From the NCBI RefSeq assembly GCF_003018115.1, contig NZ_CP027457.1: 64,000 bases of DNA; one strand, written 5' to 3'. The notes beneath the pieces are model-generated. The model did not search any database. It was not told where the DNA came from and saw only the letters and a list, made by a program, of their open reading frames with translations. A program made the position numbers and the translations under genes. Position 1 is the first letter of the stretch, and the number at the start of each line of letters is the position of its first letter. Origin of the DNA: Escherichia coli (GTDB lineage Bacteria; Pseudomonadota; Gammaproteobacteria; Enterobacterales; Enterobacteriaceae). Positions 7,689 to 12,441 of the stretch are shown piece by piece.

Positions 7689-7920
7689 ATGTTTAAGCCC
7701 AGGATTTGCAGCTGGATAGGTTTACTTCTCCTGTTTATGCTGAGTACTTCCAGTACAGGCGGAACTTCGATGTGTTGCAAATGCAGTTGATATTGAACCA
7801 TTTTTTTCTGCGGCTACCGCTGAAGATAAACAACAAGTTGAACAAGCTATCAACAGTAGCGTGAATCTTGTCCCTTCGGTTTATCTGCATCGGACTGGAA
7901 AGTGCATCGTGGCGATTTAG
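7689..7920 (+). pseudogene. decayed ORF remnant: 33-codon signal-peptide-like ORF (MFKPRICSWIGLLLLFMLSTSS...) then protein-like sequence continuing in a second frame (...AEDKQQVEQAINSSVNLVPSVYLHRTGK) before the 7902 ORF
   Basis: Three successive frames each carry short protein-like stretches separated by stops; read directly from sequence. Confidence 0.3.
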
Positions 7921-9362
7921 TGGTAGAAGGTAATATAGAGAGTAATCAAAAATTGATTGTTCTTGGCAATTTGACAGTCAAAGGTAATATTTCCACTTTC
8001 TCTCTTTCTAATCCATGGGTTATTCTCGGTAACGTGACGGCAACGAATATAGTTACGGATTCACCACTGTTAATTACCGGTTCGATAAATGCAAGTGGAC
8101 TGGTATTTATCGACTCATATTACGATAATCCGTCTACGATTAAGGGGAGTATTAATGCGCGTGGGATATTTATCAATGACATAATTGCACCTGTTGTTGC
8201 GTCTTCGACAAATAGTGAATTCATGGTCCGTGCGAGTGACAAAAATGACACTGAAAATGTCAAAAAAGCGCTGATGATAATAAATCCTGATGCATATTAT
8301 TGGGGTCTAATTAATGATGAAGATGCTCTGAAAGAAATTTTTAAGCGAAGCAATATTCGCATGGCAGGGAATGTCTGTAATCAGATGAAAAAAGAAGCGC
8401 TGTTTCGCCCTAAGCCTTCTCCTGAGTTAGTGCAGGAATTGCAAATGCTGGATGAAGGCAACGTTGCTGCATTTGAAGGACGAGATATTGCGACATTTGA
8501 TCTTGCCATAATGCGAACTCTCCCAAGGCTTAAAGGAATTTCAGCTAACCTACGCAAACAACTTATTGTTACATTACGTATTCGTACCTGGTGGGGTATC
8601 GTCATTTGTTTTTCACTGGTGATTTCAGGTCCACGCTGGATGACGTTGACGTTTTTTGCGCTGATAAGTTTTCTGGCATTGAAAGAATATTGTACGCTTA
8701 TATCCGTACATTTTCCGCGTTGGTTATATTTGGTTATTCCTCTTAACTATTTGCTTATCGGTTTTAATTGCTTTGAGCTGTTTCTGTTATTTATACCTTT
8801 GACTGGGTTTCTGATATTAGCCACCTGGCGAGTTTTTGTGGGTGATCCCTCCGGTTTTCTGCATATCGTGAGCGCCATTTTTTGGGGCTGGATAATGACC
8901 GTTTTCGCCTTGAGTCATACCGCCTGGCTATTAATGTTGCCAACCATAAATATCCAGGGCGGGGCGTTACTGGTGTTATTTCTTTTGGCGTTAACCGGGT
9001 CAAACAATATTGCACAGTATTTATGGGGGAAATCCTGCGGCAGAAGAAAAGTGGTCCCCAAAGTCAGCCCGGGAAAAACGCTGGAAGGTCTGGTGGGGGG
9101 CGTCATCACCACCATGATTGCGTCACTGATTATTGGGCCGTTGCTGACACCGCTAAATACATTACAGGCATTATTAGCGGGTTTGTTAATTGGTATTAGT
9201 GGTTTTTGCGGCGATGTAGTGATGTCAGCCATCAAACGAGATATTGGTGTTAAAGATAGTGGAAAACTATTACCAGGACATGGCGGACTCCTTGACAGGA
9301 TTGACTCATTAATTTTCACCGCTACGGTATTTTTTTATTTTATTCGCTACTGCTGTTACTGA
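7902..9362 (+). CDS. ynbB: CdsA-family (CDP-diglyceride synthase-like, YnbB-type) integral membrane protein carrying an unusual soluble N-terminal extension of about 200 aa with G-N-I/V repeats (beta-helix/bactofilin-like)
   Basis: C-terminal half has the phosphatidate cytidylyltransferase signature (PKVSPGKTLEG ... GHGGLLDRIDS) and multiple TM helices; start is uncertain, an internal ATG at 8445 with AGGA 8 nt upstream is an alternative. Confidence 0.6.
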   Translation: MHRGDLVVEGNIESNQKLIVLGNLTVKGNISTFSLSNPWVILGNVTATNIVTDSPLLITGSINASGLVFIDSYYDNPSTIKGSINARGIFINDIIAPVVASSTNSEFMVRASDKNDTENVKKALMIINPDAYYWGLINDEDALKEIFKRSNIRMAGNVCNQMKKEALFRPKPSPELVQELQMLDEGNVAAFEGRDIATFDLAIMRTLPRLKGISANLRKQLIVTLRIRTWWGIVICFSLVISGPRWMTLTFFALISFLALKEYCTLISVHFPRWLYLVIPLNYLLIGFNCFELFLLFIPLTGFLILATWRVFVGDPSGFLHIVSAIFWGWIMTVFALSHTAWLLMLPTINIQGGALLVLFLLALTGSNNIAQYLWGKSCGRRKVVPKVSPGKTLEGLVGGVITTMIASLIIGPLLTPLNTLQALLAGLLIGISGFCGDVVMSAIKRDIGVKDSGKLLPGHGGLLDRIDSLIFTATVFFYFIRYCCY

Positions 9363-9377
9363 AGGAAAATAGAGAAA

Positions 9378-11135
9378 ATGGAAAATTCACGCATCCCTGG
9401 GGAACATTTTTTTACCACCAGTGATAATACAGCGTTGTTTTATCGGCACTGGCCCGCTTTACAGCCCGGGGCGAAAAAGGTCATCGTCTTATTTCATCGC
9501 GGTCATGAACATTCTGGTCGTCTACAACATCTCGTTGATGAACTGGCGATGCCAGATACTGCTTTTTATGCCTGGGATGCCCGAGGGCATGGAAAAACTT
9601 CGGGGCCGCGTGGTTATAGCCCATCTCTTGCGCGTTCAGTGCGGGATGTCGATGAATTTGTCCGTTTTGCTGCCAGCGACAGCCAGGTCGGGCTGGAAGA
9701 GGTGGTAGTGATCGCGCAGAGCGTCGGCGCAGTGCTGGTTGCCACATGGGTTCATGATTATGCGCCTGCAATTCGCGGGCTGCTGCTGGCTTCTCCGGCC
9801 TTTAAGGTTAAATTGTATGTGCCGCTGGCACGTCCTGCGCTGGCGTTATGGCATCGTCTGCGTGGTCTGTTTTTTATTAATTCCTATGTGAAAGGACGCT
9901 ATTTGACCCACGATCGGCAACGGGTGGCGAGTTTCAATAATGATCCGCTGATCACAAGGGCGATTGCCGTCAATATCTTGCTAGATCTCTATAAAACGTC
10001 TGAACGTATTGTTAGCGATGCGGCGGCGATTACGCTCCCCACGCAACTTCTGATATCAGGCGATGACTATGTGGTGCATCGCCAACCGCAGATTGATTTT
10101 TATCAGAGATTACGTAGCCCTCTGAAAGAGCTGCATCTGCTGCCTGGCTTTTATCACGACATGTTGGGTGAAGAGAACAGGGCGCAGGCATTTGAAAAAA
10201 TGCAAAGCTTTATTAGTCGTTTATATGCTAACAAGTCACAAAAATTTGATTATCAGCATGAAGACCGCACTGGACCATCAGCGGATCGCTGGCGGCTCCT
10301 TTCTGGTGGACCCGTGCCATTATCGCCGGTTGATTTGGCGTATCGCTTTATGCGTAAAGCGATGAAATTGTTCGGGACGCACTCTGCGGGCCTGCATCTC
10401 GGAATGAGCACCGGCTTTGATTCAGGCAGTTCGCTGGATTATGTCTATCAAAATCAACCGCAAGGTAGTAACGCATTCGGGCGCTTAATCGACAAAATCT
10501 ACCTGAACAGTGTTGGCTGGCGCGGTATTCGCCAGCGCAAAACCCATTTACAAATACTGATTAAACAAGCCGTTGCCGATCTCCACGCCAAAGGTTTAGC
10601 CGTCCGCGTGGTTGACATTGCCGCAGGGCATGGGCGCTATGTACTGGATGCGCTGGCAAACGAGCCTGCCGTAAGCGATATTTTGTTACGTGATTACAGC
10701 GAGTTAAATGTTGCACAGGGGCAAGAGATGATTGCTCAACGGGGAATGTCTGGGCGGGTGCGTTTTGAACAGGGCGATGCGTTTAACCCGGAGGAACTCA
10801 GCGCGTTAACTCCGCGGCCTACGCTGGCGATTGTCTCTGGACTGTATGAGCTTTTTCCCGGAAATGAGCAGGTAAAAAACTCACTCGCAGGTCTTGCCAA
10901 TGCCATCGAACCGGGCGGCATTCTCCTCTACACCGGGCAGCCGTGGCACCCACAACTGGAGCTGATTGCCGGGGTGTTAACCAGTCATAAAGATGGTAAA
11001 CCGTGGGTAATGCGCGTGCGTTCGCAAGGGGAGATGGATTCACTCGTGCGTGATGCCGGATTTGATAAATGCACACAACGGATTGATGAGTGGGGCATTT
11101 TTACGGTTTCGATGGCGGTGCGTCGTGATAACTGA
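9378..11135 (+). CDS. ynbC: bifunctional alpha/beta-hydrolase (lysophospholipase-like) / SAM-dependent methyltransferase
   Basis: 585-aa ORF; N-terminal hydrolase nucleophile elbow (AQSVG), C-terminal methyltransferase-like region ([11 protein letters not shown]). Confidence 0.8.
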
Positions 11136-11148
11136 ACGTCGGAACGTA

Positions 11149-12441
11149 TTGCTACAAGGCGCTGGCTGGTTATTGTTGCTGGCCCCGTTTTTCTTCTTCA
11201 CCTATGGATCTCTTAATCAGTTCACCGCGGTTCAGGACCTTAACAGCCATGATATCCCCAGTCAGGTATTCGGTTGGGAAACGGCGATCCCTTTTCTTCC
11301 CTGGACTATTGTTCCTTACTGGAGTCTGGATCTTTTATATGGATTTTCGCTGTTCATTTGTAGCTCGACATTCGAACAACGCCGACTTGTCCACCGGCTT
11401 ATTCTGGCAACGGTAATGGCCTGCTGCGGTTTTTTTCTCTACCCGCTGAAGTTTAGTTTTATCCGTCCTGAAGTGAGTGGGGTGACAGGATGGCTATTTT
11501 CGCAACTTGAACTGTTTGATCTGCCCTATAACCAGTCTCCTTCGCTGCATATTATTCTCTGCTGGCTACTTTGGCGTCACTTTCGTCAGCATCTGGCTGT
11601 GAGGTGGCGTAAAGTCTGCGGCGGATGGTTTTTACTCATCGCCATTTCGACGCTGACAACCTGGCAGCATCATTTTATTGATGTCATCACAGGGCTGGCG
11701 GTAGGTATGTTGATTGACTGGATGGTGCCCGTCGACCGTCGTTGGAATTATCAGAAACCTGATCAACGTCGAATCAAAATAGCACTGCCATATGTCGTAG
11801 GCGCGTGCGCGTGCATTGTGTTGATGGAGCTAATGATGATGGTTCAGTTATGGTGGTCAGTCTGGTTATGTTGGCCAGTATTATCGCTACTCATTATTGG
11901 CCGTGGGTACGGTGGGCTTGGCGCGATAACAACAGGGAAAGATAGTCAGGGGAAACTCCCGCCCGCCGTTTACTGGCTGACATTGCCCTGCCGCATCGGG
12001 ATGTGGCTGTCTATGCGTTGGTTTTGTCTTCGCCTGGAGCCGGTGAGCAAAATGACTGCTGATGTTTATTTAGGGGCGTTTCCACGACATATTCCGGCAC
12101 AGAATGCGGTTCTGGACGTCACCTTTGAATTCCTTCGCGGACGAGCGACAAAAGATCGACTCTATTTCTGTGTACCGATATTGGATCTGATGGTTCCGGA
12201 AGAGGGGGAACTCCGACAGGCCGTGGCGATGCTGGAAACATTACGCGAAGAGCAAGGCAGCGTTCTGGTCCATTGTGCATTGGGATTATCGCGCAGTGCG
12301 CTGGTGGTGGCGGCATGGTTGTTATGTTACGGACACTGTAAAACCGTTAATGAAGCGATTAGCTATATTCGAGCCAGACGCCCGCAGATTGTGTTGACAG
12401 ACGAACACAAAGCGATGCTGAGATTGTGGGAAAACAGGTAA
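11149..12441 (+). CDS. ynbD: membrane PAP2-like domain fused to dual-specificity (Cys-based) phosphatase
   Basis: N-terminal TM region and C-terminal CX5R phosphatase motif (HCALGLSRS); start uncertain, TTG 11149 or GTG 11125; the listed ORF start 11050 overlaps ynbC. Confidence 0.7.

Follow-up and report, generated by a model that had tools for sequence, protein, structure and literature searches.

A 2,304-bp deletion joins fragments of ydbD and ynbB and has probably left the ynb operon of an Escherichia coli chromosome in decay

We examined a 64,000-nt stretch of an Escherichia coli chromosome (contig NZ_CP027457.1 of assembly GCF_003018115.1; hereafter the window), in which three open reading frames (ORFs) had been predicted to form a cryptic lipid-modification operon led by a paralogue of the CDP-diglyceride synthase CdsA. 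The ORF list showed the three co-directional frames as predicted (Table 1). The analysis indicated that the interval is the known ydbD-ynbABCD locus, from which one deletion has taken 2,304 bp, and that what is left of it is probably a decaying relic. In matching E. coli genomes the annotated gene order is pdxI-ydbD-ynbA-ynbB-ynbC-ynbD-azoR-hrpA, and the interval is that locus: window positions 6700–13200 matched 5,420 of 5,426 complete E. coli genomes by megablast, collinear matches at 96–99% identity in 4,320 or more genomes bore out the position from pdxI/ydbD to azoR-hrpA, and ynbB-ynbD shared 97.5% nucleotide identity with E. coli K-12. The locus spans about 8.8 kb in most genomes as against 6.5 kb in the window.

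The deletion and the open reading frame across it

Comparison by BLAST with the intact locus of strain TUM13936 (L002) placed window positions 8567 and 8568 at positions 3368 and 5673 of that locus, and thus 2,304 bp are missing from the window. On the left, the window sequence runs up to the final base of ydbD codon 293, and it resumes with the opening base of ynbB codon 35; since both ends fall at codon boundaries, ydbD and ynbB are joined in frame. The deletion removed ydbD codons 294–768 (the last two thirds of the gene), the ydbD-ynbA intergenic region, the whole of ynbA, and ynbB codons 1–34, together with the start codon, the ribosome-binding site and the first predicted transmembrane helix of ynbB. 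Inspection of the sequence revealed no microhomology or repeats at the endpoints; the junction is blunt, and its placement is fixed in both directions. A tblastn search of positions 6500–13400 with Salmonella bongori YnbA as the query gave no match. The interval thus shows just three ORFs because a fourth gene, ynbA, was deleted.

The promoter of the ynb operon has been mapped 5' of ynbA in the ydbD-ynbA intergenic fragment, with a BglJ-RcsB site 65–68 bases upstream of the start site (PMC3950696). This fragment falls within the deleted segment, and the BglJ-RcsB site is absent from the window. A scan of positions 7400–13300 found six sigma-70-like sites, compared with 9.0 ± 3.0 in shuffled sequence. 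Since such sites are not commoner than in the shuffles, there was no evidence of a replacement promoter.

The first ORF, taken in the original prediction to be a CdsA-paralogue gene starting at 7902, proved on alignment to intact loci to be a chimera. Its residues 1–222 correspond to ydbD codons 72–293 and its residues 223–486 to ynbB without codons 1–34. ydbD is a bactofilin-like gene not related to the lipid enzymes, and the first 222 residues gave a bactofilin match that was only sub-threshold in Pfam. The true ydbD start is the ATG at 7689, which is preceded by a GGAG Shine-Dalgarno sequence and opens a signal-peptide-like N-terminus. In the window, however, this frame is broken by a +1 insertion at 7746, so that translation from 7689 would run for 33 codons and then meet the first of three stops (7788, 7794 and 7821); further on, the ydbD frame is regained through a −1 deletion that lies between 7871 and 7872. 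The insertion is common to all five deletion alleles examined, whereas the −1 deletion is present only in the window and in strain GF3-3, and for this reason the long ORF is open in these two only.

No in-frame ATG, GTG or TTG from 7902 to 8640 had a ribosome-binding site exceeding a 4/6 match to AGGAGG. A shorter 'YnbB starting in frame behind a ribosome-binding site, for example at Met204, was therefore considered and rejected. With no such start available, and with GTG 7902 being simply the earliest start-type codon beyond the final stop, the 486-codon ORF is what the longest-ORF rule yields on two spliced pseudogene fragments. It is an accidental in-frame splice of the two.

The ynbB fragment retains a strong match to CTP_transf_1 (PF01148; 222 bits against a cutoff of 24, chimera residues 225–483). 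The lost YnbB residues 1–34 contain the first predicted transmembrane helix (SLATLFALLILATLINRF), placed by the hydropathy of residues 1–24, and the basic loop after it. Within the retained core, the motif LTESND of intact E. coli, which is LTEFND in the YnbB of S. bongori and Snodgrassella, reads LTGSNN in the window. Asn181 aligns opposite chain residue 164 of Thermotoga maritima CdsA (TmCdsA; 4Q2G/4Q2E). As chain residues R186 and K187 are R166 and K167 of the published numbering, confirming a 20-residue tag offset, Asn181 is the equivalent of TmCdsA Asp144. This aspartate is highly conserved in prokaryotic and eukaryotic Cds proteins, and its replacement in the D144A variant cost 98.5% of the activity (1.5% retained; PMC4083444). 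The equivalents of the other active-site residues K167, D219, K226, D246 and D249 are present in the fragment. It thus shares the CTP_transf_1 domain with CdsA and departs from CdsA in having Asn at the Asp144 site, no N-terminal helix, and neither a start codon nor a ribosome-binding site of its own. Bulk phospholipid synthesis by CdsA is not taken over even by intact YnbB (PMC6362211, PMC7018664).

With seven intact alleles of E. coli as the reference, the ynbB fragment was found to carry six nonsynonymous clade-specific changes (W89L, T134I, A152T, E178G, D181N and P287T, all common to the deletion alleles) and one synonymous change. When a 96-bp probe spanning the Gly178/Asn181 haplotype was searched against the 4,094 genomes carrying the segment, matches of at least 99% were found in the six genomes with the deletion only. 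Next-best genomes listed for this probe differed at two positions, consistent with E178G and D181N, and have ynbB annotated as intact. The idea that the E178G/D181N haplotype was already present in intact operons was rejected, as among the 4,094 genomes it was not found in an intact operon.

A 300-bp junction probe matched end to end in the same six of the 5,426 complete genomes, which are GF3-3, four O169:H41-type enterotoxigenic E. coli strains, and L7_E1373. In all four same-allele genomes inspected (GF3-3, F9792, L7_E1373 and F6326), the Prokaryotic Genome Annotation Pipeline (PGAP) marks both halves as pseudogenes: the ydbD half as a 'polymer-forming cytoskeletal protein', frameshifted, incomplete and missing its C-terminus, and the ynbB half as a 'phosphatidate cytidylyltransferase', incomplete and missing its N-terminus.

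Table 1. Features of the ydbD-ynb interval and its flanks (window positions)
Feature	Positions	Strand	Description
ydbD' pseudogene fragment	7689–8567	+	Codons 1–293 of the 768-codon ydbD; alignment to intact loci L002 and L003
ydbD'-'ynbB open frame (ORF1; predicted as the CdsA paralogue)	7902–9362	+	486 codons, GTG start (ORF list); starts from the earliest GTG that follows restoration of the frame
Deletion junction	8567–8568		ydbD codon 293 joined in frame to ynbB codon 35
'ynbB pseudogene fragment	8568–9362	+	Codons 35–298 plus stop; CTP_transf_1 core kept
YnbB Gly178 (GGG, 8997–8999) and Asn181 (AAT, 9006–9008)	8997–9008	+	Glu and Asp in intact E. coli, S. bongori and Snodgrassella
ynbC (ORF2)	9378–11135	+	585 aa (ORF list); monoacylglycerol-lipase-like alpha/beta hydrolase fused to class I S-adenosylmethionine (SAM) methyltransferase
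ORF3	11050–12441	+	463 aa (ORF list)
ynbD	11125–12441	+	438 aa from the probable start GTG 11125 (alternative TTG 11149, 430 aa); PAP2-like membrane domain plus dual-specificity phosphatase
pdxI (ydbC), pyridoxine 4-dehydrogenase	6765–7625	+	Intact left flank; 286-aa ORF; pdxI in all matching genomes
Hairpin	7633–7662		Perfect 12-bp stem, T-runs on both sides; between pdxI stop (7625) and ydbD ATG (7689); terminator scan
azoR, FMN-dependent NADH-azoreductase	12495–13100	−	Right flank, convergent with ynbD; ORF and annotation

ynbC, ynbD and the pattern of substitution

We compared substitutions across alleles. Intact alleles among themselves gave ratios of nonsynonymous to synonymous substitution rates (dN/dS) of 0.21 for ynbB, 0.17 for ynbC and 0.22 for ynbD, and the operon is therefore normally under purifying selection. 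Over the ynbB fragment, ynbC and ynbD, codons at which none of the seven intact alleles agrees with the window account for 12 nonsynonymous and three synonymous changes. The nonsynonymous fraction is 0.80, where 0.76 would be expected under neutrality and 0.40 is the intact-allele fraction (binomial p=0.002). By the same criterion, the control genes hrpA, pdxI and azoR of the same window showed nine nonsynonymous and 59 synonymous changes (Fisher p ~1e-6), and this flanking-gene control led us to reject the nonsynonymous excess as a young-branch effect. The lineage-specific changes in ynbC and ynbD taken together are six nonsynonymous and two synonymous.

The domain calls of the original prediction were borne out for CTP_transf_1, Hydrolase_4, Methyltransf_20 and DSPc; the PAP2 call is less secure, with PAP2_3 at 21 bits lying under its 27-bit cutoff. 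The N-terminal half of YnbC matches Hydrolase_4 (PF12146, 229 bits) and the monoglyceride lipases of Mycobacterium tuberculosis and human (6EIC and 7P0Y, E=2e-15), and its C-terminal half matches Methyltransf_20 (PF12147, 505 bits) with the glycine-rich SAM motif VVDIAAGHG present. A literature search on PF12147/Methyltransf_20 found no papers. Ser115 (in AQSVG), Asp230, His260 and the SAM motif are invariant in 14 orthologue sequences from at least six genera. The window and GF3-3 carry T262M (10161–10163), two residues beyond the catalytic histidine, where 13 of 13 other sequences have Thr. A ynbC transposon mutant has been reported to accumulate polyphosphate in one strain background only (PMC2435150).

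For ynbD, the predicted start at 11050 gave way to GTG 11125, which would overlap ynbC by 11 nt. This start is probably the correct one: PGAP chooses it in K-12 and TUM13936, and the S. bongori alignment agrees; the other candidate is TTG 11149. In its C-terminal half, YnbD matches DSPc (PF00782, 93.5 bits against a cutoff of 33.5) and dual-specificity phosphatases in PDB (E=4e-8). Asp354 and Cys384-X5-Arg390 were verified at the codon level, and the motifs HCALGLSRS and P-x-L-D-L are conserved. In the N-terminal half, the motifs PSLH and TWQHHFID hardly vary across 25 aligned sequences. With C1 KX6RP, C2 PSGH and C3 SRX5HX3D as the PAP2 reference motifs, a C3-like S-T-X5-H-X3-D aligns with human PLPP1, and the C1-like motif, [KRQ]-X4-RP, departs from the reference. 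Snodgrassella YnbD has SILY in place of PSLH, with the His replaced. Changes specific to the window are G313D (Gly in 21 of 24 sequences), P337L, M352I and V356M (Val in 22 of 24), the last lying two residues from Asp354.

PTPMT1, a mitochondrial phosphatidylglycerophosphate (PGP) phosphatase of the dual-specificity phosphatase fold, would set a precedent for the role proposed for the C-terminal domain of YnbD, which likewise has Cys-X5-Arg; PTPMT1 was not among the PDB sequence matches. YnbD has been listed as the fourth E. coli PAP2 protein with no function ascribed, and, against this likeness, it did not complement E. coli mutants deficient in PGP phosphatase, nor mutants in undecaprenyl pyrophosphate (C55-PP) phosphatase (PMC7413402).

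The genomes sharing the deletion show further lesions. When three sister deletion genomes (F9792, L7_E1373 and F6326) were aligned, ynbD, which is annotated as frameshifted in all three, was found to carry a 6-bp and a 1-bp indel. F9792 has one more frameshift within the ynbB fragment, and in the O169:H41 relatives the ydbD frame was never restored. The O169:H41 ynbC lies about 40 substitutions from that of the window despite the common deletion haplotype. Between the window and GF3-3 (L001), the ynbB fragment and ynbC are identical or one base apart and ynbD is 29 substitutions apart (about 11100–12441); this difference points to a recombination breakpoint near the ynbC/ynbD boundary.

Across the species, the ynbB-ynbD segment was covered to at least 80% in 4,320 of the 5,426 genomes and was absent from 804 (about 15%), and 4,248 (about 78%) gave a match of at least 80% to ynbA plus its upstream region. 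The usual operon-less state has azoR directly after pdxI. A pdxI'-'ynbD deletion in Z1323HEC0477 was considered as the common loss allele and rejected, being unique to that genome. A spread sample of genomes revealed independent lesions: an internal stop in ynbD of SCU-171, where the rest of the operon is intact, an internal stop in ynbB of 2020N21-110, IS1 insertions in ynbA, and an ynbA'-'ynbC deletion in RCAD0514, in which ydbD is frameshifted and ynbD is retained after the loss of ynbB. In a study of mastitis E. coli, the region left of ynbC-ynbD-azoR was found to be a zone of genomic heterogeneity (PMC4951805).

The claim that the whole interval is markedly AT-rich holds for its first 1.5 kb alone. 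The GC content is 0.402 in the ydbD fragment (7689–8567) and 0.434 in the ynbB fragment (8568–9362), but 0.514 in ynbC and 0.499 in ynbD, as compared with a window mean of 0.507 and flanks of 0.504 and 0.530. The hairpin between pdxI and ydbD is terminator-like in either orientation and leaves about 26 nt for any ydbD promoter. Its Rfam match was weak and sub-threshold, and an Rfam scan of 7300–13400 on both strands returned just two sub-threshold chance matches. To the left, at 6523–6764, paaY abuts pdxI, without the large autotransporter gene ydbA, which is also missing in the other deletion-allele genomes; ydbA lies 5' of pdxI in TUM13936 and 95-3322 and, in the form of a pseudogene, in K-12.

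Taken whole, the window is ordinary E. coli chromosome, collinear with GF3-3 from position 1 to 56068 at 98.6–99.7% identity. Between hrpA and ydcF, GF3-3 has a segment of about 1.8 kb that is absent from the window (17260–17402); of the four hypothetical genes on it, one has an internal stop. At 33583–34791 the window has an intact 402-aa IS605-family TnpB/InsQ ORF (OrfB_IS605 plus Cas12f1-like TNB domain); the tnpA adjoining this ORF in GF3-3 has an internal stop. Beyond the collinear part, positions 56069–64000 hold yncG (glutathione S-transferase, 56173–56790), VgrG (57862–60006) and a short Rhs N-terminal ORF (60074–60766, DUF6531). The best identity of this part to any complete E. coli genome is just about 94–95%, so that the vgrG-rhs allele is divergent and possibly fragmented.

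Readings of the locus

We consider a broken operon in decay to be the probable state of the locus. With YnbB, which forms CDP-diacylglycerol (CDP-DAG), and YnbA, which would consume it, both gone, YnbC and YnbD would be left without a dedicated substrate supply, and the mapped promoter is gone as well. Neutral drift would then be carrying ynbC and ynbD towards loss, a stage that ynbD of the sister O169:H41 lineage has reached already. The operon is dispensable across the species, and its absence from about 15% of genomes, the independent lesions elsewhere and the normal growth of a ynbB knockout (PMC6362211) support this reading. Several points count on the other side. ynbC and ynbD are full-length ORFs with all catalytic motifs kept, ynbC has its own AAGGA-type ribosome-binding site ahead of the ATG, and its dN/dS against intact alleles (0.15–0.24) is not above the baseline. 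There is a weak sigma-70-like site at 7963–7990, of a kind no commoner here than in shuffles. The second indel restores the ydbD frame, and hence the long ORF, in the window and GF3-3. The substitution assayed at TmCdsA Asp144 was Asp to Ala, not Asp to Asn (PMC4083444). Finally, the substitution counts are small, the reference panels comprise five to seven alleles, and the deletion and the substitutions are not placed in time order.

Some of these points would suit a different reading, in which ynbC-ynbD is a surviving two-gene module, expressed by read-through or from an internal promoter, that needs neither YnbA nor YnbB for its action on bulk membrane lipids; it might form lysolipids, methylate head groups or remove phosphates. 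The deletion would in that case have pared the pathway back without ending it. The catalytic triad, the SAM motif, the PAP2-like motifs and the Cys-X5-Arg loop are all in place, CdsA still supplies cellular CDP-DAG (PMC6362211), and the natural allele of RCAD0514 likewise keeps ynbD without ynbB. We nevertheless regard such a module as unlikely, because its mapped promoter is gone, the six nonsynonymous changes against two synonymous ones in ynbC and ynbD include T262M by the catalytic His and V356M by the general-acid Asp, ynbD is frameshifted in three sister genomes with the same deletion, and SCU-171 has an internal stop in ynbD though the rest of its operon is intact. It is similarly improbable that ynbC-ynbD is still active on lipids of the CdsA/PgsA route, as a reduced module of lipase, methyltransferase and phosphatase giving a product unlike that of the intact operon, with the six-gene ancestor described below being a full phospholipid branch and the link to the glycolipid MPIase (membrane protein integrase) a side activity.

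A reading along the lines of the original prediction takes the interval as an intact, silent three-gene operon encoding a dedicated head-group pathway, AT-rich and silenced as a unit by H-NS. The domains are broadly as that prediction described, the genes run side by side in one direction, AT-richness holds over the first 1.5 kb, and the K-12 promoter is a target of BglJ-RcsB, which is known to counteract H-NS (PMC3950696). But a four-gene operon is what about 78% of E. coli genomes carry, and the cluster runs to six genes in S. bongori and Snodgrassella; the window is without ynbA, the promoter and the N-terminus of ynbB, and its essential Asp is mutated; ynbC and ynbD are not AT-rich; and a product link for YnbB is already published. 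This reading is very improbable. The predicted pathway does correspond to a conserved lipid-enzyme cluster in intact genomes, but that cluster is the named ynbABCD operon and is broken in the window, and the view that the genes are pseudogenes holds for the first gene and plausibly for the pathway as a whole. We find it scarcely credible that the YdbD'-'YnbB fusion is a selected new gene, tethering a cytoplasmic bactofilin-like domain to a CdsA-type membrane core. The join lies exactly at codon boundaries, the compensating −1 deletion reopens the frame in the window and GF3-3, and loss of the first helix together with a cytoplasmic N-terminal domain would keep the helix orientation, as inferred from the basic loop RFRVWRLPERK after that helix. 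An in-frame junction, however, has a prior chance of 1 in 3; there is no ribosome-binding site, the signal-peptide-bearing start is cut off by stops, D181N lies in the active site, the ynbB part shows six nonsynonymous changes to one synonymous, and the O169:H41 relatives never reopened the frame, one of them having gained a further frameshift.

The intact ynb system

What the window has lost can be gauged from the intact operon. E. coli K-12 ynbABCD occupies the same position from pdxI to azoR-hrpA and has the same ynbC and ynbD products; the window differs from it by the missing 2,304 bp, the frameshifts in ydbD' and the six clade-specific amino-acid changes in the ynbB fragment. Overproduced YnbB raises the level of MPIase (PMC6362211, PMC7018664), and a ynbB knockout leaves MPIase unchanged (PMC6362211). 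CdsA and YnbB both make CDP-DAG in vitro, and YnbB restores MPIase, with growth rescued when yeast Tam41 supplies CDP-DAG (PMC6362211, PMC7018664, PMC11413397, bioRxiv 2026.06.05.730299). YnbB has been described as making both CDP-DAG and GlcNAc-PP-DAG, the first MPIase intermediate, and passages in reviews describe ynbB as cold-induced (PMC11413397, bioRxiv 2026.06.05.730299). The suggestion that the product of the pathway is unknown needs qualification for YnbB, which is linked to MPIase biosynthesis (PMC6362211, PMC7018664). Our literature search found no published MPIase role for YnbA, YnbC or YnbD, and the paper on the Lipocone superfamily does not treat the ynb genes. Unlike that of intact YnbB, a role in MPIase synthesis cannot be assumed for the ynbB of the window, since it is truncated, promoterless and carries D181N.

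A longer form of the cluster, with six genes, was found in S. bongori, at the azoR-hrpA position, and in the betaproteobacterium Snodgrassella alvi (L017 4853–10456; L014 4845–10433). Its order is CDP-alcohol transferase, CdsA-like protein, PlsC-type acyltransferase (PF01553), YnbC, YnbD and a membrane ORF of about 135 aa. The gene order is the same as in E. coli, with identities of 58–63% for YnbB, 70–74% for YnbC and 47–64% for YnbD; compared with the window, the cluster adds ynbA, the acyltransferase between ynbB and ynbC, and the small ORF after ynbD. Remnants of the acyltransferase or the 135-aa ORF were sought in the window by tblastn, with nothing better than E=0.3. By this comparison, the four-gene operon of E. 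coli is itself reduced from a cluster of six genes that is conserved in Enterobacterales and present in Snodgrassella. In Vibrio fluvialis, the cluster has ynbB reduced to 132 aa (L016 6610–7008) and no acyltransferase, an apparently independent erosion of the CdsA-like gene.

The best-scoring models for the CDP-alcohol phosphatidyltransferase YnbA of K-12 were those of phosphatidylinositol phosphate (PIP) synthase (PIPSynth; 47 bits against a cutoff of 170) and archaetidylinositol-phosphate synthase (75 against 180), both scores being far below the cutoffs, and its nearest solved relatives were the mycobacterial PIP synthases 6H53 and 6H5A (E=1e-7). In its logic the intact ynb system, with a PIP-synthase-like transferase, a lipid-type phosphatase and a PAP2-like membrane domain, is close to the two-step phosphatidylinositol route of mycobacteria and Bacteroides (for the latter, PMC9246714), which uses PIP synthase, PIP phosphatase and an AUR1-like transferase of head groups. 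It differs in that its phosphatase is of the Cys-based dual-specificity fold and not PgpA, and in bringing along a CdsA, a lipase-methyltransferase and, in genomes other than those of E. coli, a PlsC-like acyltransferase; the key transferase is missing in the window. L014, L016 and L017 have no inositol-phosphate synthase (MIPS-type) gene within the cluster or next to it.

Most likely, the intact cluster would constitute a private CDP-diacylglycerol branch. Phosphatidic acid would come from the PlsC-like acyltransferase in the genomes outside E. coli that have one, CDP-DAG would be made by YnbB, and YnbA would move the phosphatidyl group onto a phosphorylated alcohol or a sugar phosphate. The YnbD phosphatase may then trim the product, and YnbC may methylate or deacylate it.

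The locus itself is named, annotated and partly characterised, and the allele of the window is already marked as pseudogenes in public genomes, so that it is nothing new in kind; the six-gene form of the cluster and the predicted likeness of YnbA to PIP synthases are new in this analysis. The first ORF cautions that a long reading frame with a strong domain match can be the splice of two dead genes. With its active-site lesion, neutral substitutions and sister-strain frameshifts, the locus offers a clean natural case of operon decay after loss of the entry enzymes, and the search for the product of YnbA, YnbC and YnbD would be better served by the six-gene form than by the window.

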